Notes: a model not told the origin generated them from the letters alone. A stretch of DNA of 63,996 bases, filler included, from Catajapyx aquilonaris (GCA_000934665.2; 3 parts of 3 records of this genome joined end to end with filler, not necessarily neighbours in it); one strand, 5' to 3'. Counted from the first letter of the whole stretch, positions 4,077 through 63,996 are shown. Made by a program: numbers and translations.

Positions 4077-4790
4077 TTAAAAAAGACGTCCTTTCTTTTT
4101 ATCAACTTGTCATAGCTAAAATCCTGCTCTATTGAAAAAAATAGGCTACTTGTGGATCGCTGCGAGAGAAAATAATAAATTGATATGGGACACCGGCTTT
4201 GCCACATTGGGTCCCACATGGCTGCCATATTGGCGCCAGTCTACTTCTACACTTATTATCAACTTTGTCTTGCCGATCCACAGATATGGCCACGTCACGT
4301 GTATGAATCTGCATTGTCGGACTTGGATGTGTAGATTCTTGCAGGTGACAACTTCCGCATGATGAGTTTGTCAGCCATACCATGCCAGGCCTTTAATGTT
4401 TGAAGGGCCAATTTATTATTATAGTGGCAGCATGTACTACAATCTAATTAATTAAATTTTGCTCAGATATAGTCATTAAAACCTTTCATAACTTTCAACT
4501 GTAACTTTCAAACTGTAAATCAGGTTTTAAAGATTGGAAAAGAGTTGAGGAAATATATTTTTAATTTTCAATAGACCAGTACATACAAATAATAAATGCT
4601 TGTCTCTCGTACATTTCCTTAACATTTCCTCAAATGGCCCCAAATACATTTTGATTTTGATAGAAATTGCGGCACTTTCTTCTTGCGTCTGAGAACAAGG
4701 TTGTTGAGAGCCTTGGCACAGCAATGGCCGCACGTAACAATTAAACATTAAGTGACAGTTTCATCCTGAGGGAGTCCGGAAACCCTTTTC

Positions 4791-6335
4791 TCATTTGCTG
4801 GATTTGGGTGGCTTTTCCTTACCATGTACCCGATTGACATGCTTTCTGATATTTGGTCTGCCTGCAAATCTTTTCCCACACAAGTCACAAGCGTAAGGCC
4901 TCTCCCCAGTGTGCCTTTGCCGGATGTGGGCCTCTAGTTCATTCTTCTTTCTGAAAGACTTAGAACAATGGGGGCATTTGACCAGTTTTGGTGGAATCTT
5001 ATGACTCCTCATGTGATGGTAAAGAGCACTTCTCGACTTCAAGCATTCTCCGCAAACATGAGATTCTTCTTCCATGTGTAGCAACTTGTGCTCTTTCAAA
5101 TTACTTGCTTGACGAAAAGCCTTACCACACAAGTCACATTCAAAGGGCTTTTCCCCAGTGAGTAGCACCATGCCTCACTAAATTACTCTTCCAAGTGAAT
5201 GCCTTTCCGCACACAGTGCACTTGAACCGTTTCTCTGCATGTCTTTTCATGTGACGCTTGAGGTATTCCTCATTCTTAAAAGTGGAGGGGCAGAATTTGC
5301 ATTTTAATAGTGGTGTCTGCTCAGCATGATTCAATTTCTTGTGACGTTTCAAGGTGTTCACATACTTAAATCTATTGTTACAAACATCGCAAGCAAAGAG
5401 TTTCTCTTCAACATGTACACTTGCATGCCTCTTTAAGTGAGAGTCACTTATAAATGCCTTGTCGCACACTCTGCAAACATGCATTTGCTGGTGCACTTTT
5501 AGATGTGCCAAAAATGCTTTTCTTTTGCTGAAGGACTTGTTGCAAATGCGACACATGAGTTCACCACCAGCGTCATGGGAGGAAGAGTGAACCTGCAGCC
5601 TGACCTCGGAAAAGAAGGACTTGTCGCATCTGGTGCACTTGAGGGGCTTCTCTCCCGGATGGATGGCTTCCTTGTGGAGGCTCAGAGACCACCAAGTCTT
5701 GCATATCTTGCCACAAAGGTCACATGGAAAAGTATTTTGTTGAATGTGGGCATGTCTGTATGTGCCTCAGCCTTTATTTCCTCATCAAAAACCATTCCAC
5801 AGATCAGGCAAGGGAAAGAATAAGTCTGTGCCTACAAAACAATAGCAGCATAAAATATTTAACAATACAATTTTGCTTTGAATGCTATGTGACCCACCTT
5901 TTCTTTACCAGGACTCCCATCTTTATTGCCCTGCTTTGCCATCCTGAAACCCTTCAGAATATCCATTGTGCGAGGACCTTGCGCTGCTTCTGGCTCTGGC
6001 TTGACACTGATGGTCAAGATCAAACCACTGTCCGCAGCCGCATTTTCACCCGCATCCTCTGCCTCTTCTTCGTTTGCCACTGATGTCTGAAACGGTCTGA
6101 AATTAATCGCATGGACGAGTTAATGATCAGGACCTCAATGACCGGAGCTCGGATATCATCCGGGTATGATCTGATTCCACATCATGCCCAGCGGTACACT
6201 ATACAGGCTCCTTCATAATAACTAATGGAGTTAATCCACATGCTCACCTCTCCCTCACTGCCGCCTTCGTCTTCCATTTTCACATGGTCATCAACGCCTG
6301 AAACGTATTCCTCGATGAAGCCAGGCCCCTCTTCC
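4791..6335 (-). pseudogene. C2H2 zinc-finger pseudogene ZF2
   Basis: Paralogous exons 6248-~6335 (5'-truncated, no ATG), 5898-6086, 4791-5831. A +2 insertion near 5760 and a -2 deletion near 5160 relative to intact paralogs; one finger lacks CGK. Confidence 0.85.
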
Positions 6336-7002
6336 TAGAACCTAGAATAGTCAGATTTCTACCAGGGATACAGAAGTGGACATGAGGTCGTGGCGTCATT
6401 AATTATTCCAATTGCCCTCTTTTTCAACCAAGACCTGTCATAAAAATGTTGGCCGAGAGGGACTCGAAACACTTAGGTTCTGATCATGCACCGGTGTACT
6501 TCGCCAATAGACCAACTAATCGCATGAAGATTTTGTTACAAACATGTACGGCATATGCCAGGGAATTACGCAGTTATAGTAATAATGGCCAAGGTCTTAA
6601 CTTGAACGAGTACTTGAGTAACGTATTTCAATATCTTTAATCATCAGGATAGCATTGAGCAGTCATCCGATATCATGGTTATGATCTGATTCCACATGAA
6701 CCCTTTCAAACTGTAAATGAGGTTTTAAGGTTTGGAAAAGAGTTGAGGAAATACATTTTTAATTTTCAATAGGCAAGAATACATACAAATAATAATGCTT
6801 GTCTCTCGTACATTTCTTTAACATTTCCTCAAATGGCCCCAATTATATTTGATTTTCATAGAAATTACGGCACTTTTTTCTTGCGTTTGAGAACAATAAG
6901 GTTGAGATGTCTCTCAAAAGCCTTGGCACAACAATGGCCGCACGTCAGAATTAAACATTAAGTGACAGTTCGATCCTGAGGGAGTCTGGAAACACACTTT
7001 CC

Positions 7003-10507: not shown

Positions 10508-10908
10508 TCTATGATATAGTTTATGTGTTACATATTACGTAATATAGGCATATTTGTTACATATGTAATCTAATCTCCTAATTTAATTTCGCGCATATAC
10601 AGTATAGTCATGAAAACCACCAGGATTTATAGATTGGAAAAAAGTTAAGGATTTTAAAAAAAAACCAATAGAAGATTGCATAAATAATAAAGCTTGTCTA
10701 ACCCATTTCCTTCGTAACATTCCCTCAAATGGCAACCCAAATACATTTGATTTCAATAGAAACTGCAGCATTATTTTTTCTTGCTTCTGTCTGAGAAGTT
10801 CACAATGTCTCTCAAAAGCCTTGGCACAACAATGAGAATGGTCGCACATAATAATTAATCACTAAGCTGCAGTTTGATCCTGAGTGAGTCTCGAAACACA
10901 CACTTTCC

Positions 10909-12560
10909 TCATTTGTTGGTTTTGAGTGGCTTTTTTTCACTGTGTAATGCCTTGATATGCTCTCGGAGATGATTTTTGCCTGCAAATCTTTTCCCGCAAA
11001 TGTCACAAGCGTAAGGCCTCTCCCCAGTGTGCCTCTGCCGAATGTGGTCCTCTACTTCATTCTTGTATCTGAAAGCCTTAGAACAATGGGGACATTCGAT
11101 CAAGCATTTGGCAGGATTTGGGGGAATCTTATGTTTGCTCACATGACAGTGAAGGGCATACTTCGACTTCAAGCATTCCCCACATTCTCTGCAAACATGA
11201 GATTCATCTTCCACGTGTAGCAGCTTGTGCTGTTTCAAATTACTTGCCCTAAGAAAAGCCCTACCACACACGTCACATTCAAAGGGCTTTTCCCCAGTGT
11301 GTGTCAAGTCATGCCTTACCAAACTACCCTTTGTAGTGAATGCCTTTCCGCAGACAGTGCAACTGAACCTTTTCTCTGAGCCTGCCTCCGTATGCCTCTT
11401 CAAGTGAAGCATGAGCTTTTCCTCATCCTCAAAAGTGGAGGGGCAGAATTTGCATTTTAATAATTGCTTCTGCTCTACATGCTTCAATTTCTTGTGATGT
11501 TTCAAGTACCTCATAGACTTAAATCTAGTGTTGCAAACATCGCAAGCAAAAGTTTTGTCTTTCACATGTACACTTTCATGTGTCTTCAACACAGATTCAC
11601 TTATAAATGCCTTGTCGCACACTCTGCAAACATAAATTCGCTGGTGGACTTTCGCATGAGCCATAAATGCGTTTTTTTTGCCAAAGGATGTGTTGCAAAT
11701 GTGACACACAAGTTTTCCACCAGCATCATGGGAGGAAGCGTGAAGCTGCAGCCTGACCTCGGAAAAGAATGACTTGTCACATCTGGTGCACTTGTGAGGC
11801 TTCTCTCCCGGATGGGCTTCCTTGTGGCGGCTCAGAGACCACCAGGTCTTGAATATCTTGCCACAAACATCACACGGGAAAGGATTTTCTTCAGTGTGGG
11901 CACATCTGTGGGCCTTGGACTTCTTTTCCTCGTCAAAACCCTTTCCGCAGACCGGGCAAGGGAAGGAAGTCTGTGTCTAAAATAGAAGCATAAAATATTT
12001 ATCAATACAATTTTGCTTTGAATGCTACGTGACCAACCTTTCCCTTCTCCATACTATCATCTGAATGGTTCTGCTTGGCCAGACTTAATAAGCTCTTCAG
12101 AATTCCCGTTGTGGTAGAACTTTGCACTGTGTCTGGCTCCGGTTTGACGCTGACAGTCAAGATCAACCCACTGTCCGCAGCCACGTTTTCACCCGCATCC
12201 TCTGCCTCCTCTTCGTTTGCCACTGACGTCTGAAATTAATCGCATGGACGAGTTAATCATCAGGACAGCAATGAGCAGTCCTCTGATATGATGGCCATGA
12301 TCTCCACGTGTACTTTGGAGGCACCTCGCACCTTCATAATAACTAATTGAATTAATCCACATGCTCACCTCTCCCTCGCTGCCGCCTTCGTCTTCCATTT
12401 TCACATGGTCATCAACGCCTGAAACGTATTCCTCGATGAAGCCAGGCCCCTCCTCCTCCTGGTCAGGCGTCTCCTCCTTGATCCGCAAGAGCCAAGTCTC
12501 CTCCGTCGTCATCTCCTCGTCCTCCTCCGCCTCCTTCTTGATGGTCTGGGTCAGCGACAT
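10909..12560 (-). CDS. C2H2 zinc-finger protein ZF5 (483 aa; 12 fingers)
   Basis: Exons 12369-12560, 12038-12229, 10909-11976 with phase-0 GT-AG introns and fully open frame. Confidence 0.9.
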
Positions 12561-12698: not shown

Positions 12699-12740
12699 GA
12701 CGCCATCTTGGATTTTGGACAGGGTGCATTCGGACGCCTG
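12699..12740 (-). promoter_or_regulatory. Conserved cluster promoter element with YY1/Pho-like CAAGATGGCG core
   Basis: caggcgtccgaatgcacc-N-aaatccaagatggcgtc about 140 bp upstream of the ZF5 ATG; recurs at 13105, 15361 and 19529. Confidence 0.65.
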
Positions 12741-13104
12741 GAATAAAGAAGAACGGACAGCGGGAGGTGGATATACGCTATCGAATGTAGCTGCTACCTC
12801 AATCGCTGCTACTCGCTGATGGAACAAACTGCAATGAAAACTATATATCATGTAATATTGTCAGCATATTAGACACATATCATGTTATATATTCAGAATG
12901 TTGGTTACGTATCATGTAATATCAGCATATTTTTGTTATCCAGGTTGTTAAACAACGTATAATATTGCAATCAGCAAAATAGCACTTTATCGTGTCGCGA
13001 ATAACGTACAACGGTAGCGGTTACTTAAGTAACGGTTCCATAAATAGCTGTTAGTTAAGTAAAGGATCCGGGGATAGCGCTTAGACACATCGACGTATTG
13101 TGGT

Positions 13105-13146
13105 CAGGCGTCCGAATGCACCCAACCTGAAATCCAAGATGGCGTC
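13105..13146 (+). promoter_or_regulatory. Conserved cluster promoter element (divergent partner of the ZF5 copy)
   Basis: Same motif on the opposite strand, about 80 bp before the donor AAG|GTGAGT at 13224/13225. Confidence 0.65.
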
Positions 13147-13449
13147 GATTATTCTCGATTATTGAAGTGCGGCGTCGTAATTTAATCATTTGCGAGCTAA
13201 TTAAAGGTTGGAATTGGAAGCAAGGTGAGTGGACAGGTTAAATGGGACGATGGAAGGACATTTTGGGCCAAATTTTGGGTGGGGAATCGGAAGGAAGGTC
13301 CCGCTGGAGCTGATAAGAACACTTGTCATGGAGCTAGAAAAGGATTGGGCATTGTGGCCATTTTTAAAAATGCAAAACTGTGGGGGTTATGTAAGATTAT
13401 TGATATCCATATGAGCATACAGATTTATAACATACATTTTTACAGGACA

Positions 13450-14752
13450 ATGGAAGTTATGGTCAAGCCTGATGAAGCAGCGGACAGTGTAGCGACTGAG
13501 GAGACATGGTTAGAGTTGAAGCAAGCCACTTTCGACAATGATTCGACTGTTACTACATGGACACTACAGGAGGTCAAGCAGGAGGAAGAAACTATCTTGC
13601 CCGATGTGGAGGTTATGGACGTTGCCGACGATCCTTCAGTCGCTGGTGCACGCAACTTGCAAAGCCACATGATAGTTCATGAAAAAGACAGGTCATACTA
13701 TTGCGATGTGTGCCGGAAAAGGTTTGCTGTGCAGGCGACGCACATGGAAGAACAGCCATTCCATTGCCAGCACTGCGGTAAAACGCTTAAAGCCGCAGGT
13801 AATGTCATTCAGACATACGTACTGCAGAAAATGTTTAGGCCACTTCTGAGCTCATTTTTATTTAGAGATGAAGTTATGCCGACATGCGATTTTGTCGTAC
13901 ACAATGTGCACCAATTAAAATACTTCATGTATTTCAGACTCCGCCTTGACAGACAGAAATACAGTCAGAGAATCAGAAGAAAGAAGCAAGGAAAAGCGAC
14001 AACGCAGAGAGGTTTCATCATCAAGCGATGAAGATGACAACGACGACAATGAGCTTCCGCCTCCACCTTCCACTTCGTTTACTCATGTACCTGTCTCCGT
14101 TCAAGCTGCATCAAGCTGCAGTTGTGCCCAAATGATTACCCAAATGGCAAAGCAGCAAGAAGGTTGGTAAATTGATATTGTGAGCATCAATGGCTATCAT
14201 TAATTATCAATTACTATTTTGCTTTACACAGAGTTCCATAATATTTTGCTGAGGCAGCAGACGCAATTGATAATCGGTCAAAATAGAATTCAGGATACTC
14301 TGGATTTCATACTCCAGAAAATAGGGGGGAACGACCAAGAAGGATTATGGAATGGAAGCGACAACAGCGTCCTTTGAAACCTTCCTCTTTCAACGGAGGA
14401 AGCGCTGGAGGAACTGGAGGAAAAGCTGGTGGTTGAAGACGCCAGGACCTGTCTCCTGAAATCGTTGCGGACATTAGGAGGATCGAACGTGAAGGAGGTG
14501 GTCAAGACACTAATGAAATTCATGATGAACGACCACCTGGCAGCCACGTTCAGCTGGGAGGGAAGAAAAGGGAAAAGACCATTCGTAAAACTAGGCTTGT
14601 GCAATATTGTCTACGAAGCAGTGCGAGGAAATGTCCGCACCAAGGAAGCCACGAATAAGGAAGTGGAACAGGAAGTGAAAATCTGGCTGCGTCATGCGCC
14701 TGCCAGGTCAGAAAAGAAAAAAGCAGACGCAGGAATTAAGTACGTACAGTAA
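13450..14752 (+). pseudogene. TEETWL module + degenerate zinc fingers + DUF4806 (BEN-like) gene with one in-frame TGA
   Basis: Exons 13450-13798, 13938-14162, 14232-14752 join in frame (phase-1 introns). C-terminus LPLSTEEALEELEEKL...LGGSNVKEVV...FSWEGRKGKRPF...IWLRHAPAR fits the DUF4806 pattern. Single TGA at 14375-14377. Confidence 0.65.
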
Positions 14753-15360
14753 AATAATCAGTCATAAACAATATGCGACAAAAAAAATTGGCTGTCGTCA
14801 GAAAAAGGAAAATTAAAAGTTCGGGACGGAGCGTCTGCTGCGGTGTGGCCATTTCTAAAATATATTTTTAAAAAACACAAGTTTGCGCTTTCAATTCATT
14901 TTTTGATGTTGATATTTTATATGTAAAAATCATTATGTACGTGGAATAAATACATTTTCATTGAAACATCCTTTCAATCTTGTGTACAGTACTTACTGTG
15001 CATATTACTATTGTTGCATATTTTAAATACCTGATATATTTTTTTCTGACATACATTTTCACTACATTGCCTGGTTAACATAATTTTACCTATGAAACTT
15101 TTAAAAAATTTAAATTTAAATTTTTAAATAAAACATTTTGCCAATTAAATTCAAATATTTTTAAATTTAAATTTTAAATAAAACATTTGCCAATGAAATT
15201 AAATTATTTTTAAATATAAATTTTAAATAAAATATTTTGCCAATTAAAATATTGTCCATTTACAAAAATAGCACCTTAACGAGTCGCGAATAACGTTCAA
15301 CATTAACAGTTAGTAAAGTAACGGTTGCGGGAATAGCGCTTAGGCACGTGGCTTTGTGGT

Positions 15361-15396
15361 CAGGCGTCCGAATGCACCTAAAATCCAAGATGGCGT
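15361..15396 (+). promoter_or_regulatory. Conserved cluster promoter element
   Basis: caggcgtccgaatgcacctaaaatccaagatggcgt upstream of a 5'UTR exon ending at 15475 (AAG|GTGAGT). Confidence 0.65.
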
Positions 15397-15687
15397 CGTT
15401 TGCAATCAATTAATGATCTGATGGTTCATAATTAAATTAATTGCGAGCTAATTAAAGGTTGGAATCGGAAACAAGGTGAGTGGACATGTTAAGTGAAATT
15501 GTGTTAAGGAAATTGTGCCAAATTTTGGCGAAGGAAAGGCCAGAAAGGGCCGGTTGTATGCGATGAAGTATTGGAGCTAGAAAAATATTTGGCAATTTTG
15601 GAATTATTTTGATGTAAAACTGTGGGTCATGGCAACTTGTTGATGCAAATGTGAGCATGCAGACTGATAATATGCATTTTCAGAGCA

Positions 15688-16715
15688 ATGGAAGGGAAAG
15701 TCAAGACTGAGGTGGAGGAAGCAGCAGACAGTGTTGATACAGCAGAGGAGACGTGGTTGCTCCAAGTGAAGCAGGAGGCCACTTTGTACATGGACAATAA
15801 GTCTACCAGTGTTACGGAAGCCAAACATGACGTCAAGGAGGAGGAGGAAGAAATGGTCTTGCCCAAGAAGCTGCAGTCAGTTGACAATGCCAATGATCCT
15901 TTACGTCCTGGTACATGCAACGTTCAGAGACATAACGATTGCGGGTAAGTATTAGGTACGCAGTAACTGAATTTGTAGTAAACCGTGCGCCACTTGCAGA
16001 TGCCGCCGGAACTGTCTCGCTGACGTACCCACGTACAAACAGAAAGCTATCCTCAGAAAGTTCAAGCAGCTGCAAAAGAGAGGGAAAGTTGCCCAGGACA
16101 TCTACCTTCAACGCTGCATCACTCCAACACCAATACTACGCCGTCGCAAGCGTGACACTGGTGACAGTCAACTAAAACGCTCCCCAAGGACTGCTACGTA
16201 CATCTACACTGTCCCGCTTGGTACGTATTAATTACTTCAATACTTGTTGATATGTGATGAGTGTACCCAAAACAGGTGCGACAGTACGTGTCGTGTGTTT
16301 GAAGGCGTTTTGCTCCCTCCACGATGTGCGTCTTGGACGGATGAGGAGGCTGGCTCTTCTAGCGAGCAGGAAGCAGGTGCCGGAAGAGCTGCGCGGGAAG
16401 CATGGAAATAACCCTCGACAGACGGACCCTGCAAAACTCCAGCTGATCACAGACCACATCAGGTCTCTTCCTTTCAATCCGCACAAGGACAACAAAACCA
16501 AGAGACACCTGACTACAGTCCGAAGTGTCAAACAGATGTACGAGTTGTTCCTACAGAAGTACGACATCAAGGCTTATAATAAATGGAAGGTGTCGGGAAT
16601 TCCCATTGACAAGGCCCGTGGATTGGTCACTTACAGAATTTATTTGCATCAATTTCACAACACCTGCAGCAACTATACTTTTGGGAAGACCAGTGCGGAA
16701 CTTGTGACGAGTTGA
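15688..16715 (+). CDS. 305-aa fusion protein: EETWL acidic module + transposase-derived (Sola-like) Cys-rich/DNA-binding region, no catalytic domain
   Basis: Exons 15688-15944, 16000-16220, 16276-16715 (two 55-nt GT-AG introns) total 918 nt with an open frame. Motifs CGCRRNC, QDIYL, VCLKAFCSLH, LRGKHGN, HIRSLP, SVKQMYELF, YRIY..F...NYTF. Confidence 0.75.
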
Positions 16716-17045
16716 AGTCCTCTTTGGAATATACAGTGCATAATGTGCAAGCCGATCTTTTCCCTGGAACTATTGCATGTGTTGATTATTTTTTTTACAT
16801 TACTACATTATTATAATTATAATATCAAAGAGAGAATTGCATATATATAAATAATAAAACTTGTCTCTCGTAATACATTTCCTTCATAGCATTTCCTCAA
16901 ATGGCCCCAAATATCTTTAATTTTGAAAGAAATTACAGGACTTTTTCTTGCAACTGAGAAGGTTCAGATGTCGCGCAAAAGTCTTCGCACAACAATGTAG
17001 TACATAGGAATGGTCTGCTATCACAATGTAAAACAAAGTGACAGT

Positions 17046-18473
17046 TTAATCCTGAGCTAGTTGTTTCTCATTTGCTGGATTTGAGTGGCTTCTTCTCGCA
17101 TGACGGTAAAGGGCATGTCGCGACTTCAAGCATTTCCCACACTCTCCACAAACATGAGATTCATCTTCCATGTGTAGCAACTTGTGCTCCTTCAAATTAC
17201 CCACCCAACGAAAAGCCTTACCACACACGTCACATTCAAAGGGCCTTTCCCCAGTGTGAATAGTGCCATGGGTTAACAAATTACCCTTCGTAGCGAATGC
17301 CTTTCCACAGACAGTGCAACTGAAACTTCTCTCTCGGAGTTCCTTTTCATGCCTCTGCAAGTGAAGCTTGAGGTATTCCTCTCTCTTGAAAGTGGAGGGG
17401 CAGAATTTGCATTTTAATAATTGCGTCTGCTCAGCATGCTTCAATATCTTGTGACGTTCCAAGGTCCTCATAGACTTGAATCTACTGTTGCAAACATCGC
17501 AAGCAATGAGTTTCTCTTTCACATGTACACTTGCATGCCTCTTCAACCCAAAGTCAGATATAAATGCCTTGTCGCACACTCCGCAAACATGAATTCGCTG
17601 GTGCAGTATCCCATGTGCCAAAAATGTTTTTAATTTGCTGTAGGACTTGTTGCAAACGTGACACACAAGTTCACCACCAGCGTCATGGGAGGAAGCGTGA
17701 AGCTGCAGCCTGTGCTCTGAGAAGAAGGACTCGTCGCATCTGGTGCACTTGTGGGGCTTCTCTCCCGAATGGGATTCCTTGTGGCGGCTCAGAGCTTCAA
17801 AAGTCTTGCAAGTCTTGCCACACACATCACATGGGAAAGTATTACGCTCAGTGTGGGTATTTGCCTAAAAAATATTCATTATAAGATTTTTTGTTTAAAG
17901 ACAACTTTTCACCATAGCTACTTTCAGTGACATGCGACCCACCTTTCCCTTCTCCAGACTATCATCTGAATGGCTCTTCTTTTCCACCCTGAAGCTCTTT
18001 AGAATATCCGTTGTGCAGGGACCTTGGACTGCTTCTGGCTCTGGCTTGACATTGACCGTCAAGATCAAACCACTGTCCGCCGCCGCATTTTCACCCGCAT
18101 CCTCTGCCTCCTCTTCGTTTGCCACTGACGGCTGAAATTAATCGCATGGACAAGTTAACCACCAGGACCACAATGAGCAGTCCTCTGATATCATGGATAT
18201 GATCTGATTCCACATCATGCCCAGTCGTATACTATACAGGCTCCTTCATGATTAACCAATGGAGATAATCCACATGCTTACCACACTGCCGTCCTCTTCC
18301 TTCACTTCCGTACTGTTAGCGCCTGAAGCATATCTTTCAAAGAAGCCAGTGTCCTCCTCCTCCAGGCAGGAAGGCGTCTCCTCCTTGATCCGCAGGTGCC
18401 AAGTCTCCTCCGTCGTCATCTCCTCGTCCTCATCCTCCGCTTCCTTCTTGATGGTCATCGGCAGAGACGACAT
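17046..18473 (-). CDS. C2H2 zinc-finger protein ZF8 (399 aa; 9 fingers, lacks the first and last two)
   Basis: Exons 18282-18473, 17943-18131, 17046-17864 with phase-0 introns and open frame. Its own upstream region is replaced by the truncated ZF9 copy. Confidence 0.8.
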
Positions 18474-30200: not shown

Positions 30201-33200
30201 GAACCGCTGATACTGGCATACCTCACTTAGACCGGCATGCCAGTATAGCCACCAGATCACACATTTCTAAAAACTGGTTGACCTCGACTATACCGGCATT
30301 GCCACTTTAAGTGAGGTAATACGGTAATACAAAATTTCACACGGCCGGAAACTATATGATGATCATTATTTTCGCGGCACCCCTACATGATATTTGTAGC
30401 ACCCTAGGGTGCTGCGGTACCCCAGTTGGGAACCACTGGAATATACAATTATGACAAGCGACTGTGACCCTCTAATGGCTTCCAATGGATTTTGTCTGTT
30501 ACTGGTTGCCAGGTTAAACGATCCATAACTTCTGCCCCTACTCGACTCTTGAATTTAGGACCTGGGCAGTTTCCCCTGTATGAGGAATGTTGGCAAAAAA
30601 ATAAACTGTGAATAATTTTAGTACGGCCCTCGCATAATTGGTCTGATTGGGTGAGATGCGGTGGCCAAGCTGGTAACGACTCGGCTTGCTGATCGAAAGG
30701 TCTCAGGTTCTATCCCTGCCCGGGATTTCCCTTTAGGCTGTGTCAGGAGGGTCTCTAACCCGCGCCTTGGAGGTGTCTGGCAACCTAACCTCCGAGGTTC
30801 GGTGACTTTTCTCTGGGTGGTAGAAAAGTGAGAGTGCGCCTTCCTTCGGAGGGGAAGTAAAGCCGTCAGCCCCGTGTGCTTGTGACATTGCGCGAGTGCA
30901 CGTTAAAGATCACCAGAGCAGCCAAATTTTCAGGAGGAGGACCACCCCCTGGCATCGGTGTTGAGCCATGCGGCAGAAATAGGCCGACGTTAAGCCCCAC
31001 TGAAAAAATGTATATTGAGTCCATACTTACTACTGTTCGGTAAGTCATAGGGCACAATGTCTATTGAGGGGAATTTATGGTGTTGCCAATGTATTAATGA
31101 TGGACAGTAGTAAAAGTACAGTACATAGTAGATTTAAATGAATTTCTCGGCCATCATAGCACATATTGAAAAATGGCCCTATGAATGGGCGTGAAAATGC
31201 ATGTCCTTTCGAATGATACTGTGAGGGCCGTACTAAAGTGATTTTCATTATTTATTTTTTGCCACAAATACAGGACCTGGCAGGTTGGCAGATAGGCACA
31301 CATCATCGAGAGAATCCTCCTGAATCCGAATGCACTGGTACCACGGGTGTGGCAACCTCTCCAGACCCTCTAGGAATCATATTTTGATGGTGCAGCACAC
31401 CAGTCCTAGTGCCAGACAACTGGTCGCAAGTCAACAATATCCTCCAAATGGCGTCAGTGAAGGGTTTTTTTCATGGATCTGGCATTGGGTGCTTCCACCC
31501 GCTACATGCCCCCGGCCTGGCTGCCAGTGACTTTCACCTGCTCAGAACCATGAAAAAGCCCCTTCACTGATGCCATTTCGAGGACGTTGTTGAACTGCGG
31601 GCAGTTGTTGGGGAGTGGGTGAGCCGCACCATCAACACATGGTTCTTGGAGGGCCTGGCGAGGTTGCCACACCCGAGGGCTCAAACTTTGCCACATCGGG
31701 CCCCCTGGGAAAGTAATTTCCGATATCGCCCCCCACCCAATACGCCTGCGGCAGGCGATTTTTTTTTGGGTTCAAGGTCACTCAATCTTAGGTGAATGTA
31801 ATAACTGACAAAGTACAGCGGAATCCTACTGTAAGCACATCGGATATAAGCAAGTGGAAAGATCGGTCCTTTCATATTTCCAGCAGTGCCAATGTACAAG
31901 TGAAGTTGAATCCGGATATAACAGACTTGTCTGCTATTAGCTGACTGCACAAATTCTTATTCAGAATTGCACTTTTGGCTTTTAGAACTGCACAAATTGT
32001 GTAGAACTGCACGCTACAGTAAGCCCTGAGAAGTAGTTCTTACCTAATCAGTGCGACTTTTGTGCCTGTTTCGAGTCACATAATTTTTGGATTCGCCCCG
32101 CGCCCCCCCTGCCACCCGTTCGCGCCCCTCAGTTTGAGAACCACTGACTTAATGGCTCACTTTCATCTGACTGAACCTTGTACTATCCACCAAGAATTGT
32201 CGTAGCGGCAGCGCACGAACTACAGTTACGAGCACTTCTCCCCCCGGAAGTGCTTGTAGACTGTAGTTCGTGCGCTGCCGCTACGACAATTCTTGGTGGA
32301 CTGATAGTACCAGCAGTGGTATTTTAATTTTTATGTGACATATCACAGGGCACTACATTTGCTATCCTGAGCCCAAAAGCTTATATGATTAACAGAACAT
32401 GAGGGTAGAGTGTGAAGTCTGATTTTATAACTTGCAACTTTTGCAAGCTTATTTATGTAACATGTACAGTGAAACATGTACAATTGTCTTTGCAGAGGTG
32501 GTTGAACATTGCTGTGGCATCACCAATCTTCAACTAGGAGAGACATTGCCAGGAATTGCAAAAGATATGGACCTGCATTCCTACCGTGTGCCACTTGGTG
32601 TCTGTGCAGGGATCACGCCTTTCAACTTTCCTGCTATGATCCCTCTCTGGGTGTGCCTCCAGTTTTACAGTGATTTTAAGAAAATAACAGGAACTCATGA
32701 CGCAATATTTCTATGACAGATGTTCCCTACTGCTCTGGTGTGTGGCAACACCTTTGTGGTAAAGCCATCTGAGCGTGATCCAGGAGCATGTATGCTGCTG
32801 ATGGAAATGCTAAAGGAAGTTGGATGCCCAGATGGTGTAGTCAACGTCATTCATGGTCAGCATGATGCAGTCAACTTTATCTGCGACAACCCTGACATCA
32901 AAGCAATCTCATTTGTTGGTTCAGACACTGCAGTGAGTGTCTTGCTCATCTTCTCAATGGCAACTTGTATCATTTTCTGCTCTTCAGATCAGAGTGGTTA
33001 GGCTTTTATAACCTACGTTGGCAAAGTTATGCCAAAAATCATGTCATTTATTTTTCAATAGTACAACTTGTGCTGACAAGTTCTTGGTAACTTTCTTGGT
33101 CGTTACATATTAATGCAATGTTGTTTGTTAGGGCAAATACATTTATGAACGTGGATCTCGCAATGGCAAGCGTGTTCAGTCCAACATGGGTGCCAAGAAC

Positions 33201-34075
33201 CATGGTGTTGTCATGCCAGACGCAAACAAAGAAAACACATTGAACCAACTGGTGGGAGCAGCATTTGGTGCAGCAGGACAACGCTGTATGGCACTCAGCA
33301 CTGCTGTGTTCGTTGGAGAGGCACAAGACTGGCTGCCACAACTGGTGGAGCGTGCCAAGACACTTAAGGTCAACGCCGGGCATGAACCAGGAGCTGACTT
33401 GGGCCCTGTCATTTCTCCACAGTCAAAGGAACGCATCTGCAGACTGATTGAGTCTGGAGTTAATCAGGGAGCCAAACTCTTGCTGGATGGGAGGAACCTT
33501 ACTGTGCCAGGTTATGAGAAGGGAAATTTCATTGGTCCTACAATTCTTACAGGTGTACAGGTGAGGAAAGTGTGATGTCATGTTACTAGTGCAATGTTTT
33601 AAACCTGGCTTTCTGTGACATTATTTCTTTTAGCCCAACATGGACTGCTACAAGGAAGAAATTTTTGGCCCAGTTCTTGTCACCCTCTGTGTTGATACCC
33701 TTGAAGACGCCATTAACATGATTAATGCTAATCCCTATGGGAATGGAACTGCCATATTCACGACAAATGGTGCCACAGCACGCAAGTTCACTCAGGAAAT
33801 TGATGTTGGGCAAGTGGGTGTTAATGTGCCCATTCCTGTGCCATTGCCCATGTTTTCCTTCACTGGATCCAGGGGTTCTTTTATGGGTGATTCAAACTTC
33901 TATGGGAAGCAGGTAGGGAATATCTCATGTTCATGTGCGAATGATTTCAACAAGATGATTACTTTAATTTCAGGGCATCAATTTCTACACTCAAGTGAAG
34001 ACTGTGACACAGATGTGGAGAGAAACAGATGTATCACACCAAAAGGCAGCTGTAGCGATGCCAACCATGCGGTAG
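24233..34075 (+). CDS. ALDH6A1: Methylmalonate-semialdehyde dehydrogenase (acylating), mitochondrial; 5' exon(s) not visible
   Basis: Exons 24233-24382, 27643-27721, 32496-32650, 32720-32932, 33132-33560, 33634-33912, 33974-34075 join in frame. Motifs [54 protein letters not shown] (catalytic Cys), [22 protein letters not shown] at 34186. Confidence 0.96.
24745..25080. mobile_element. Small foldback MITE in ALDH6A1 intron
   Basis: Inverted arms such as ctgtgtcttggcc..aaatttggcgctggc / gccagcgccaaattt..ggccgagacacag. Confidence 0.55.
26799..27499. mobile_element. Foldback MITE (gggtcattc-ended family)
   Basis: Diverged long inverted arms (e.g. gtggtaccgatgtagta / tactacatcggtaccac); ends agagtcattcaaa / tttgaatgaccct. 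Confidence 0.6.
27863..28048 (-). mobile_element. tRNA-derived SINE type B, partial
   Basis: Homologous to the head and core of the 23696 copy. Confidence 0.75.
28269..28708. mobile_element. Tc1/mariner MITE
   Basis: TA|cagggt..gaaactcac..caggtagact and its inverse ending accctg|TA. Confidence 0.7.
28895..30438. mobile_element. hAT non-autonomous element carrying nested MITEs
   Basis: TIR cagtggttcccaac / gttgggaaccactg; 8-bp flanks gaatagac / gaatatac. Nested inverted-repeat elements at about 28968-29358, 29458-30321 and 30070-30212. Confidence 0.75.
30070..30212. repeat. Near-perfect palindrome (hairpin MITE)
   Basis: aattgtccctcgcgtcgagcgggcagccacgcgtcaggatgaaag is inverted exactly at about 30150-30195. 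Confidence 0.85.
30648..31003 (+). mobile_element. SINE head A fragment joined to a Nin/Deu-domain-like SINE body
   Basis: Head as at 22060. Body gtgcacgttaaagatc...gccaaatttt..ggag also occurs at 38432-38585. Confidence 0.6.
31222..31680. mobile_element. Mariner-derived foldback element, truncated
   Basis: Homologous to 53969-54532; internal inversion (gggtgtggcaacctc / gaggttgccacaccc). Confidence 0.6.
32180..32310. repeat. Near-perfect palindrome (hairpin MITE)
   Basis: tccaccaagaattgtcgtagcggcagcgcacgaactacagt inverted exactly; ends resemble those of the 30070 hairpin. Confidence 0.85.
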
Positions 34076-34318
34076 GACTGATAACCCATGTTTAGATGTC
34101 AGATCGTTCTGTGGCAAGAGATGTATTCCCGAGAAATGATTCCTGTTATGACAAAGTACCTTATGGAACATTAAAAAAGCATCACAATAAATTTTATTGC
34201 ATTTACATTTGTGCATTTTCAACATCAAATCACAAGAAGGGGAAGTTACAGATAGTCTGATTATTATTATTATGGACACTTTCACATGATTTTCTTATTA
34301 GCTTATTGCCCATGATAA

Positions 34319-43795: not shown

Positions 43796-45387
43796 TCAAC
43801 TTACTGGTGGTGTTGGTGGAAAGCAGGTTGTCCCTTCCAGTTCATATGAACTCTCCAGTGTGTTTGCTATATCATATTGGGATCCTCCAAGATGATACCA
43901 GAGCCCTGTTAGAGTTGACTCATAAGGATCAGGCTCACGATGTATAGAAAGAATTGTTTCACTCCCTACTTGCGGGATCAATGAGTCTTCTCGACTATAA
44001 CATTAATATTGCTGCTGTCAACATGCATTTCCTTGAGGATTAGTAATGCTGGTGTGCATGACTGATAGTACGAGGTTGGTTTGAAAAGTTTGGCCTCCTA
44101 TGCGATAATTTCAACAACACAAGACCGTATGTCTGGTGAAAGCTTGGAATGTCCTCTACCAGAGGATTTCATTACTTTTCCACTTAGTCACCATCCCTAT
44201 CCACACGCATGTGCCAAAGTCAGACCAGTTGTTGCATTCCGTCAGAGTCTATATCAGGAGTCTTATCCTGGCACAGGAAATGCACATATGGTTGCACCTC
44301 TGCATCACTGGTGTAATGGTGTCACTTTCAGTGTTCTTTCAGCTTCATGAAAAGGAAAAAGTCGCAAGGTAAGAGATCCGGGGTATATGGCGTCTGATGT
44401 TGCAATGCAGCTTGCCTTTGTCGACTCGTGTGTAGGATTGGTGTAGGATTGCCATACAGCCCGGATCTCGCACTGTGACTTTTTTCCTTAAAGATCACCT
44501 GCAGGGACATTGTTACACCAGTGATGAGGAGATGCAAGCAGATTTGCATCGCTGGTGCTGGAAGATATCTTCTACGACGGGATGCAACAACTGGTCTGAC
44601 TTTGGCACATGCATGTTGATAGAGATGGTGACTAAGTGAAAAAGTAATGGCACCCTCTGGTAGAGGGCATTCCAAGCTTTCAGCAGACATACGGTTTATG
44701 TGAGTATCTTGCCTATTATTGAAATTATTACATAGGAGGCAAAACCTTTCAAAGCAACCTCTTTCATCCAGAACAAATGGTTGATCATTGGTATTAATTT
44801 TGTTTAGAATATTGTTACCCTCAATGAATAACAAGATATCAACCACTAGTTTTGAATTTACTATTGATCGCCCACCCCATCCTAAATGTTTTTTACCATC
44901 TGCGGATTGTAAAACATAGATCGGGAGGCTCCTCAACTGCTTCGTCAGCAAGAGGACCCAGCGGATCAAATTCTTGTTCATTGATTGCAAAGTTGTATGC
45001 TGCTTCGCACTCACTCCGTTCGCCAAACAATTCAATGAATATTTGAATTCTTCTTCTACGTCTTAGAACATATCTATATGTCTCTTCATATTCTTCATAG
45101 AAATCTTGACCAAAAGGACAGCCTCGCTTTTTTGCCTTTGCAAATATAAATGCTCTGTCAACATCATCAAATCCCTTTGGATCAAGGAGCTCTTCAAACA
45201 AAAATTGCAATTTCCTGAAGAACTTATTATTTTTATTCAGGAAGCATTTTGAGCCGACTTGTAATGCATCAATAAGGTGCATTACAGGTGGTTTCAAAAA
45301 CATGCTCTGGGGTTTAAGCATGTATTTGCCCAGATATGTATCGCCTAGGCGGTTGTGCCTTTGCCAGTAGTGATAATCTTCTAACAT
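43796..45387 (-). pseudogene. Unidentified decayed coding sequence interrupted by a mariner MITE
   Basis: 164-aa ORF 44893-45387 with protein-like composition continues by frameshift (ADGKKHLGWGG..FVLDER) to the MITE edge. Coding-like sequence resumes beyond it (43796-43981). Confidence 0.4.
44071..44761. mobile_element. Mariner-derived foldback MITE
   Basis: Arms about 44071-44330 / 44510-44761; remnant PYTPDLLPCDFFLFMKLKEH (mariner YSPDLAPxD motif) on the minus strand. Confidence 0.8.
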
Positions 45388-53968: not shown

Positions 53969-54532
53969 CGAGGGGTATTCAGAAAGTTTTTACACTTTAT
54001 TTTATTTGCCACAAATGCAGGGCCCATGCTGGTAGGCAGGTAGGCACACATTATCAATAGAACCCTCCTGGAGCCGAATGCACTGGCACCATGGGTGTGG
54101 CAACCTCTCCAGGCCCTCCTGGAACTACTTTTTGGTGGGGCAGCGCACCCACTGCCAGACAGCTGCTCACAGTCAACAACATACTGTCAACAATATCCTG
54201 AAAATGGCATCAGCGAAGGTTTTTTTTTCATGTATCTGGCTTAGGGTGCTTCCACACCCACCGTACTCCCCCATCCTGGCCCCTACTGACTTTCAACTGT
54301 TCAGATCCAATCAAAAACTCCTTGCCCGATGCCATTTCGAGGACATTGTTGAACAGGAAACAGTTGTACGGGAGTGGGTGCACCGCACCACGAAAAAGTG
54401 GTTCCTGGAGGCCCTGGAGATGTGGTGCCAGTGCATTTGGCTCCAGGAGGGTTCTATCGATAATGTGTGCCTATCTTATGACCTGCAGGGTGACAAAAAA
54501 ATTAAGTGTATAGACTTTCCGAATGCCCCTCG
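53969..54532. mobile_element. Mariner-derived foldback MITE
   Basis: About 29-bp TIRs with TA; remnant LPHPPYSPILAPTDFQLF...; the left arm is an inverted copy of the transposase 3' end. Confidence 0.85.
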
Positions 54533-55184
54533 TAAGTTGGTACTCCTTTGCCTGACAAATTATAGTTGGTCATAAGAAACAAAGATTCATTCAACTCCTC
54601 TTTCACTCCCCTCCTGCTCAGGGTGCCAACAAGACTTCTGGGTGCATGCAACATGTCTTCCAACACTGCCAAGGTCTTATGAGCATAAAAATTACCATGG
54701 TGTGTCTAGGGTAATATTTGGTGAATAGGAAAGTAATGCGTATGTTTCTTTCCTATAAGCATTATTACATTGTACAAGAGATATACATCCTTCACATAAC
54801 AATTTTGATTTTTAGAACATCACCTACACCTACACAGACATAATAAGATAAATTCAATTGAATATACTTTTTGTACTTGCATATTGTTGCCAGTGAGTTA
54901 CCTGTATTCTACAAAGGAGTTGTACTATGTTTTTTTCTTTGGATTATGTAATTGGGCCTGGAGGTTGCTGACTCCCGCTTGCTCCAAATAATGTGTTGAT
55001 ATTCTTCAGTTGCCAGGTGCAGAAATTTACAGATGGCTCTGCTGAAGACAAGTGAATGTCATCTAATTAGATGAGATTGATTTGTTTCAGGTTCAGTGGG
55101 CACTCGGTATCCGTGGGGGTTTGGGCTTCCTGAGGATACCAAAATCTGCCACTCTTCCAGCTCCTTGCATAAAATGGTGTAATA

Positions 55185-62766: not shown

Positions 62767-63035
62767 CTTAAATCAGCAAACAGTAGTAGCATACAGTGTA
62801 GTTCGAACCTCTGAATAACTCATTTTTATGGTGTGTAGGACCATTTTCGGATTGTCCCTGTTTTCCTATTAGCTGGGCACACCCATGCATTCACGAGCAT
62901 GGATATATAATCGAGAGTACAGTGTATTGTCCTTTCATTTCTCGTATCCAATGACTCAGGTGGTATGTTGGGAAATGGTTCCATGAAGTCTATACCCTGT
63001 GTATCATTATTATTAATGTACCTCTCATATTGCAG

Positions 63036-63280
63036 GGCTTGCACAGCCACCAATGAACCTGCGGGCCAGCAAGAAGAGGAGGGAGCTGAGGGACGATTTT
63101 ATGGCTACTGCTGTAGAAGAAATTAAAGCAATTTCTTATCGTCCCCCTCCTCCCGAAAACACCCTGGACATTTTTGGCCAATGTGTGACCAGTAGCTTAA
63201 AGCAGCTAGTGAATATACACCAGCAGGAATGTCCAAGGTTCGTAATACGCGAAATCCTTTTTAAGGCCCAAAGTGGCCTT
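63036..63280 (+). pseudogene. BESS-like motif exon, probably a remnant of a MADF/Harbinger accessory ORF
   Basis: Acceptor ttgcag at 63035; ENTLDIFGQCVTSSLKQL..Q....FVIREILFKAQSG resembles the C-terminal helix motif of MADF-type ORFs. No upstream exons found. Confidence 0.4.
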
Positions 63281-63996
63281 CTTCTCCCTGTGCATGACCT
63301 TACCACATCTCATTTGCATCTTCTCCCAGAGAGTCCCCATTGTCACCAGCCATGTCCTCCGCCAATCACTTCTCAAATTCTTCCAATATATCATCACCCT
63401 TGCCACTGTACCCATCCCCACTATCTGAAGCTGATCCCTCATCCCAGGCACCACTTTCCTTGTAGGCGAGCGGTCACTGGAGGAAAAGACGCTTATTTAA
63501 GGGTTTAGTGACCACGGCGGTATAACAAGCAAATGACTCTTTTTTTGGAAAGTGCATATCGTGACTGGATCGTACATGGAATTTTTTTGATGTCGGACCC
63601 CGGGAAGTGCCCGAAATGACGTCATCAAGATGGCCGAAATTGAACATTGCTAGGGGGCTAGAAATGAATTTCTGGAGCCCCCGGTACTCGTTCTGACTGC
63701 GGATTTTGGCTGCCAAGTTGTTAAGAAGTGCCTAGGCGACAATTACAGAACCATACCGCTTCCTCAGGAATGAGTATGAGGTCACATGACTGACAAATAC
63801 GTCAAGGAACTTACCAAACTTCAGAGAACATTTCGCTTTAGTCACGTTTTGCAGCTCCCCCTTGAGGTATAACAGAAAATACTTCCTATAAACATTGTGC
63901 CTAGCTTCATTCTGGACATTGTAGCATTTATTAGAAGTACGTCGGTTGAGAATTGTACGGAGGAGAGCAGTATTTGTGAGCGAGTGCGCGATGTGG

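Follow-up and report, generated by a model that had tools for sequence, protein, structure and literature searches.

The zinc-finger gene cluster within a 63,996-nt stretch of DNA from Catajapyx aquilonaris (three parts joined end to end with filler; hereafter the window) contains a locus at 15688–16715 in which an acidic coding exon of the cluster is followed by transposase-like sequence. A preliminary description regarded it as an intact gene, in which a domesticated transposase DNA-binding region was attached to the effector module of the cluster. The question raised by this locus is whether the two parts make up one gene and, if so, whether that gene is an established, domesticated one. 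The host-transposase chimera is real and its transposase homology is solid. The locus is a candidate fusion gene, for which a young or decaying state is likelier than an established one.

Structure of the locus

The ORF of 305 amino acids, described earlier as three exons separated by two 55-nt GT-AG introns, was recovered when it was recomputed. The intervals 15688–15944, 16000–16220, and 16276–16715 joined into 918 nt, which represented 305 codons, free of internal stops, and a TGA. Each of the intervals left out measured 55 nt (GTAAGT...TTGCAG and GTACGT...AAACAG). When the first was retained, the frame ended at the TAA at 15946–15948; when the second was retained, it ended at a TAA whose last base was 16231. 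At the first junction, only one of 16 GT/AG pairs (at least 40 nt apart) was both open and in frame, i.e., 15945/15999. Exon 2 (16000–16220) had no in-frame ATG, and thus the transposase-like frame could be translated only as a fusion. The host exon and the transposase-derived sequence shared one uninterrupted reading frame, which established the architecture of a fusion gene. The features of the locus from the start codon onward were as follows.

15688..15944, plus strand: host-derived coding exon with the ATG at 15688 and the acidic EETW module; 45% amino acid identity to the paralogue exon
15945..15999, plus strand: putative intron 1, 55 nt, GTAAGT...TTGCAG; the sole open in-frame pair of 16, status uncertain
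Between ~15933–15980 and ~16790–16811, plus strand: alien piece, bounded by the end of host homology and the start of the 3′ flank
16000..16220, plus strand: exon 2, transposase-derived, with the CxxxC of CxCxxxC and the QDxYL region; family profile positions ~62–133, tblastn
16221..16275, plus strand: probable intron 2, 55 nt, GTACGT...AAACAG; gap-free colinearity with the family once removed, immediate stop if kept
16276..16715, plus strand: exon 3, transposase-derived, with VCxxAF, RGKH, and HIxSxP, then NYTFGK and the TGA; relatives found by phmmer
16683..16790, plus strand: frameshift site and out-of-frame transposase tail; ~10 nt of FGxPRxD lost near 16685
16812..17091, no strand assigned: sequence past the alien piece; shared 3′ flank of a convergent minus-strand zinc-finger gene (blastn)
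16853..16858, plus strand: poly(A) signal AATAAA, the sole canonical one from the stop to 17100

The position of the AATAAA, 138 nt past the stop, was in favor of a working fusion gene. The alien piece was present as one copy within the window according to blastn and tblastn, apart from one weak HSP near 63 kb. This HSP, one of 189 tblastn HSPs (E ≤ 0.01), came from a Sola1-family protein and was located at approximately 63000–63500 (+); it may be due to chance or may mark a further fragment.

Promoter and first coding exon

The upstream part of the locus had been described as the cluster promoter, a 5′UTR exon, and the EETW module, and this was borne out by its paralogy. The region 15309–15932 aligned with 13050–13667 at ~70% identity, and the homology stopped at 15932 (blastn).

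13050..13667, plus strand: paralogous reference unit with promoter, 5′UTR exon, intron, and EETW exon, aligned to 15309–15932
15300..15420, plus strand: promoter-like region with the AAGATGGCG motif at 15387; 80% identical to the upstream region of the paralogue (97/121 aligned positions)
15421..15475, plus strand: putative 5′UTR exon, start undefined, donor GTGAGT at 15476; 15421–15476 were 82% identical to the paralogue (46/56)
15476..15683, plus strand: putative 5′UTR intron, 208 nt, GTGAGT...TTTTCAG; 15477–15683 were 69% identical to the paralogue intron

The segment 15361–15397 also matched minus-strand cluster genes at 12740–12699 and 19571–19529 (blastn), and the AAGATGGCG promoter motif occurred at five places in the window. 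The promoter motif, the 5′UTR exon, and the EETW exon were common to the locus and the zinc-finger cluster genes, and transcription of the locus would start from this shared region. Directly upstream of the promoter-like region, four copies of an AT-rich direct repeat of ~50 nt were located at 15085–15248; they shared 60–100% identity and contained internal palindromes.

The host-derived coding exon was 67% identical to the paralogue exon at the nucleotide level, and all five of its indels were multiples of three, which was not so for the indels of the 5′UTR intron. Between the two acidic exons, dN/dS was 0.45 (bootstrap 0.22–0.85) and dS was 0.79 over 73 codons, an estimate that covers the host exon against its paralogue and is averaged over the two copies. 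Together with the in-frame indels, this established a coding constraint on the host exon: on average for the pair, the acidic exon was kept as coding sequence after an old duplication. The higher identity of the promoter and 5′UTR exon (80–82%) versus the intron (69%) pointed toward maintenance. The exon had a good start context and a good GTAAGT donor. The open frame downstream of a conserved promoter, the constraint on the host exon, and the consensus donor all spoke for a working fusion. The apparent maintenance of the promoter and the host exon spoke against a reading in which no fusion exists.

EETW modules were found at seven places in the window (1634, 8271, 12503, 13498, 15745, 18410, and 19327). 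Five of the seven formed a closer subfamily (IKKEAE..EETWLLRIKEE) and were located upstream of full zinc-finger exons; the other two, in the units on the plus strand at 13.5 and 15.7 kb, were a separate, more diverged pair. The acidic exon had no match in a word-index protein search, which is weak evidence. None of the 156 proteins examined from the Sola1/DUF7869 family contained the EETW module, a point against a working fusion.

No zf-C2H2 match was found by Pfam on any of the exon pieces of the locus scanned. The last codons of exon 1 (NDCG) may stem from either the host or the transposase. The idea that they represent a remnant of the first zinc finger of the paralogue, joined by microhomology, was rejected: the local alignment downstream of 15932 scored 13, which was below the mean for shuffled sequences (14.4) and was attained in 402 of 500 shuffles.

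Transposase homology of exons 2 and 3

The exon-3 peptide matched 149 proteins at E ≤ 1e-3, and 14 of them at E ≤ 1e-10, in a phmmer search of 1.84 billion representative proteins. The best match in this library had an E-value of 2.8e-18 and was just 39% identical, which did not favor a working fusion. Against a family profile built from 47 relatives (621 positions), the spliced ORF scored 176.2 bits at profile positions 57–270. The transposase likeness noted in the preliminary description was thus confirmed, and the sequence comparisons identified exons 2 and 3 as the third of a DDE/D transposase that lies N-terminal to its catalytic domain. Pfam DUF7869 (PF25273) was located C-terminal to the matched region in 20 of the 26 relatives scanned, which were the longer and better-scoring ones, and was absent in six. 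The Atlas clusters of the family contained DUF7869 in 80–95% of cases, with Arthropoda as the commonest phylum. Among ten relatives looked up, the only named one was a hypothetical protein of Periplaneta americana. The separate exon pieces of the ORF had no Pfam match above threshold, DUF7869 included, and a word-index search of exon 3 against longer proteins gave no match, which again is weak evidence. In the literature searched, the word DUF7869 was not mentioned.

The catalytic part of the family was examined in the relative P0050, for which a full-length model was obtained (pLDDT 90.2). Residues ~297–475 of the model adopted an RNase H fold of the integrase-like type, and the best VIA match of its DUF7869 region was 6rwo_A at Z 11.8 (rmsd 2.7 Å, 130 residues); the best Foldseek E-value of the model was 2e-4. 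HMM profiles for the RNase H-like domains of Sola1–3 are provided in supplementary file 1 of PMC5751038. The RNase_H_Sola1 profile was compared with the relatives P0001, P0016, P0022, and P0050 by eye, with no score, over 94 of the 124 consensus nodes and for Sola1 alone among the three. Its consensus stretches sfDlqk..lsLP......fyYkr, gRgsNe.as.l, and ilysDncagqNkn ... f.epgHs (PMC5751038) had by-eye counterparts in the relatives, i.e., afDfqqn.plP...fYkRq, arRGvNEv.S.L, lyifTDnCgaQNKN, and FPeaGHS. These motifs surround the conserved acidic residues. Within nodes 57–124 of the consensus, the five upper-case nodes observed (R58, D86, N92, I113, and H122) were all matched by the relatives. In this unscored comparison with part of the profile, the catalytic domains of the relatives fitted the Sola1 consensus, which supports the label Sola of the preliminary description, and specifically Sola1.

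The locus itself contained no catalytic domain with an acidic triad, and the fragment ended at profile position ~270–290 of 621. At the locus, no tblastn match of the full-length relatives extended past ~16790. The reported absence of TIRs was also seen here: no inverted repeat flanked the transposase piece, and only short pairs with 72–81% complementarity were found elsewhere. The fragment started and finished within coding sequence, and both the element ends and a target-site duplication were absent. Its truncation was thereby established. A metagenome scan, performed with a smaller alignment than the 47-sequence one, identified one degenerate relative (L001, 1–3813 of a contig), which spanned the N-terminal region as well as the catalytic motifs and was interrupted by stops and frameshifts.

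Frameshift in the conserved motif

The preliminary description placed the end of the ORF just before the expected DxCxxC motif. The stop was not a clean one: the motif was present at 16688–16714 in the +1 frame, where it read DQCGTCDEL and was matched by the HSPs of ~30 relatives, each of them weak (tblastn). Weak likeness to the family extended in the +1 frame to ~16762–16790. Compared with the family sequence FGxPRxDxCxxC, ~10 nt were lost directly after FGK, and because this loss shifted the frame, the ORF ended at a TGA eight codons later. When the shifted tail was added with an X at the break, the profile score rose from 174.0 to 185.1 bits.

Several conserved positions were affected (residues are numbered according to P0050, the first row of the alignment; this applies to H182, H192, C263, and C266). 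P258, D261, C263, and C266, each conserved in at least 90% of the family, were all lost from the ORF, and Y193 and L207, which are nearly invariant, were also lost. The profile alignment displayed a four-residue gap at the SHY motif, and an R replaced a conserved Leu. The designation of the gene as intact could not be retained, given a frameshifting deletion in the most conserved motif, the loss of two nearly invariant Cys, and the gap at SHY. That the ORF was ended by this deletion and not at a domain boundary argued against a working fusion; the frameshift and the motif losses were at the same time what inert debris would show. On the other side, 220 transposase-derived codons were open and scored 176 bits against the family profile, which counts against decay. 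The lone frameshift is located at the extreme 3′ end, where a capture retaining only the N-terminal domain would tolerate it.

Predicted fold and DNA binding

The exon-3 peptide was modeled by AlphaFold2 with a pLDDT of 85.6, based on an 11-sequence alignment. The model had no Foldseek match at E ≤ 1e-3. In the wide VIA search, the top match was a winged-helix domain, the cullin WHB domain 8caf_E (Z 5.2, rmsd 3.6 Å, 68 residues), and the matches to the DNA-binding parts of TnsABCD, the P element, and Tc3 were weak (Z 4.8, 4.5, and 3.8, respectively). A VIA Z under 8 may reflect merely a common arrangement, and all matches of the exon-3 model were below this reliability level. The predicted fold of the modeled region and its location N-terminal to the catalytic domain make a winged-helix or HTH role in DNA binding plausible. 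One zinc site might be formed by H182, H192, C263, and C266, which are nearly invariant; if so, the frameshift removes half of it. A working fusion was favored by the retention of most family motifs, the predicted folding of the exon-3 part, and the winged-helix-like matches that included transposase DNA-binding domains (Z 3.8–5.2), and disfavored by the level of these fold matches.

The two putative short introns

Intron 2 (16221–16275) was well supported as an intron by the colinearity of the family across it. The degenerate relative L001 had no intron at this position, and thus intron 2 was not family-wide.

The status of intron 1 was uncertain because the transposase frame read through its acceptor. 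The first Cys-x-Cys of CxCxxxC ran straight across this acceptor, and the tblastn matches of the relatives began at 15980–15998, reading CRC over it. Against the family profile, the spliced form scored 176.2 bits and the read-through form scored 174.0 bits. The residue before the first Cys in the family was most commonly D (12/29) and was T once; between the two Cys, K (8) and R (6) were the commonest residues, and G occurred twice. On these comparisons, the two forms appeared to fit the family about equally. Three options were considered for intron 1: it may be a native intron of the element, with the break within ~12 nt of it; it may be a new intron, with a host-side donor and an acceptor within transposase codons; or the interval may never be spliced.

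Pyrimidines made up 10 and 8 of the 20 bases before the AG in intervals 1 and 2, respectively, which indicated weak acceptors; a verified intron of 73 nt elsewhere in the window, in the methylmalonate-semialdehyde dehydrogenase gene, had 15 of 20. The lack of pyrimidine tracts in both intervals and the read-through of the intron-1 acceptor weighed against a working fusion. The use of both splices is a prediction of the fusion model. The dehydrogenase exons were located at 33132–34095 (+), with the intron at 33561–33633, and their best named matches were from an ostracod, mites, springtails, and a dragonfly (~84–91% identity over 93 residues).

The two 55-nt intervals were alike at 27 of 55 positions without gaps, and both opened with GTAMGTATTA. 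Their cores were alike at 19 of 46 positions, a value attained in 75 of 5000 shuffles (mean 12.2). Such likeness is only suggestive of two copies of one insert; it might reflect a shared origin or a tightly constrained consensus of minimal introns.

Surrounding zinc-finger cluster

The flank downstream of the alien piece (16812–17091) matched 3433–3150, 4580–4814, 6779–6936, and 10680–10938 (blastn). The convergent minus-strand ORF at 17046–17864 contained a full zf-C2H2 array (Pfam). In the paralogue at 13450–14031, the acidic exon ran straight into two degenerate C2H2 fingers, and a DUF4806 ORF (E 1.5e-7) was located downstream of these finger remnants at 14378–14752. Thus, both units of the plus-strand sub-cluster were rearranged. 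A second copy of a rearranged or chimeric kind, followed by alien coding sequence, may be present at 13050–14752 (+).

Elsewhere in the window, two ORFs at 44328–45062 (−) and 54036–54575 (+) had a YxPxLxPxDFxLF-like motif and no Pfam match at E ≤ 0.01. We take this motif to be that of mariner-type transposases, and the two ORFs are probably degraded transposon fragments.

Origin and status of the candidate fusion

Here, we propose that the locus is a young or decaying chimera derived from a rearranged zinc-finger paralogue, and not an established domesticated gene; we give this reading about an even chance of being right. The locus would be a rearranged paralogue of the cluster zinc-finger genes, in which the zinc-finger-coding part was swapped at the DNA level for an internal Sola1-type (DUF7869-family) fragment of ~830–880 bp. 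This fragment would begin at CxCxxxC (profile position ~57–62 of 621), cover the N-terminal region with its helical, winged-helix-like structure, and break off close to where the catalytic domain starts. The first ~60 codons, the whole RNase H-like domain, and both element ends are absent. Transcription from the cluster promoter and removal of the 5′UTR intron and the two 55-nt intervals would give a protein of 305 residues. In the predicted product, the acidic EETW module would precede the N-terminal region of the transposase, and such a protein would be incapable of transposition. With the ~10-nt deletion in FGxPRxDxCxxC, the locus might represent an evolutionary trial of transposase capture, the order of these events being our reconstruction. 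A young or decaying state is preferred because this deletion frameshifts a conserved motif.

The next explanation is that the locus is a functional fusion gene, in which the acidic module is spliced to a retained N-terminal DNA-binding domain of Sola1 and acts as a sequence-specific regulator. By analogy with the KRAB-transposase fusions of tetrapods, such a protein might act, e.g., at Sola1 ends, and the loss of the catalytic domain and the CxxC knuckle would then be part of the domesticated form. The open frame behind a maintained promoter and the constrained host exon fit this explanation well, and the position of the frameshift and the weak acceptors fit it poorly; we consider it possible, though somewhat doubtful. 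A bolder version of it holds that the promoter and the acidic first coding exon are a capture platform of this genome for transposase domains and that this locus is a working member, which seems to us unlikely by a further small step. In this version, the locus would be the first Sola1-derived fusion regulator, with a junction intron formed de novo from a host donor and an acceptor in transposase coding sequence, and with the transposase trimmed to its N-terminal DNA-binding region.

The least favored explanation, which we regard as improbable, is that no fusion exists, the host frame ending at the TAA at 15946–15948 to leave an 86-residue acidic peptide or none, and the transposase piece being inert debris from an intron-bearing Sola1 copy whose join to the exon is coincidental. 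An in-frame join has a prior of ~1 in 3, one of 16 candidate pairs was open, the acceptor lies within sequence readable as codons of the transposase (CRC, which ranks first or second among the forms seen in the family), both acceptors are weak, and the neighboring paralogue is likewise rearranged. However, the working pair has a perfect donor (GTAAGT) and an acceptor that reads CAG, interval 1 has the same 55-nt length as the homology-supported intron 2, and the spliced form is slightly better in the profile and places the commonest residue, D, before the first Cys.

Comparison with known fusions and elements

KRABINER and other KRAB-transposase fusions are cases of transposase capture in tetrapods, and the fusions reported by Cosby et al. 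were judged by a fusion transcript, alternative splicing, and purifying selection on the transposase domain (10.1101/2020.05.07.082677). The present locus resembles these fusions in combining an N-terminal host exon of a regulatory type from a zinc-finger cluster with a non-catalytic, presumably DNA-binding part of a transposase, and in having an acceptor, here putative, within transposon-derived sequence. It differs from them in that the host looks like an arthropod and not a tetrapod, an acidic EETW exon takes the place of KRAB, and the transposase is of the Sola1 type. In addition, the present piece is an internal fragment and not a whole element in an intron. The name Sola is absent from the main text of that report.

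Exons 2 and 3 share homology with the N-terminal part of proteins that have a Sola1-like catalytic domain, and the motifs shared with the Sola1 profile in the catalytic domain of the relatives are fD, ysDncagqNkn, and epgHs (PMC5751038). Unlike Sola1 elements, the copy in the window lacks the catalytic domain, the TIRs, a target-site duplication, and the first ~60 codons; it cannot be an element. It has one or two 55-nt introns, the second of which is absent in the degenerate relative L001. Compared with the DUF7869 proteins (PF25273), which are mostly from arthropods, the ORF is confined to the part that precedes DUF7869.

In tetrapods, the capture of transposases is documented as a source of new transcription factors. 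If a zinc-finger cluster of an arthropod-like host does the same with a Sola1 transposase, the principle would be extended to another animal lineage, to another effector module, and to a transposon superfamily not named in the main text of that report. The locus could show an early or failing stage of capture, in which a junction intron was assembled from host and transposon sequence, a stage that is rarely caught.
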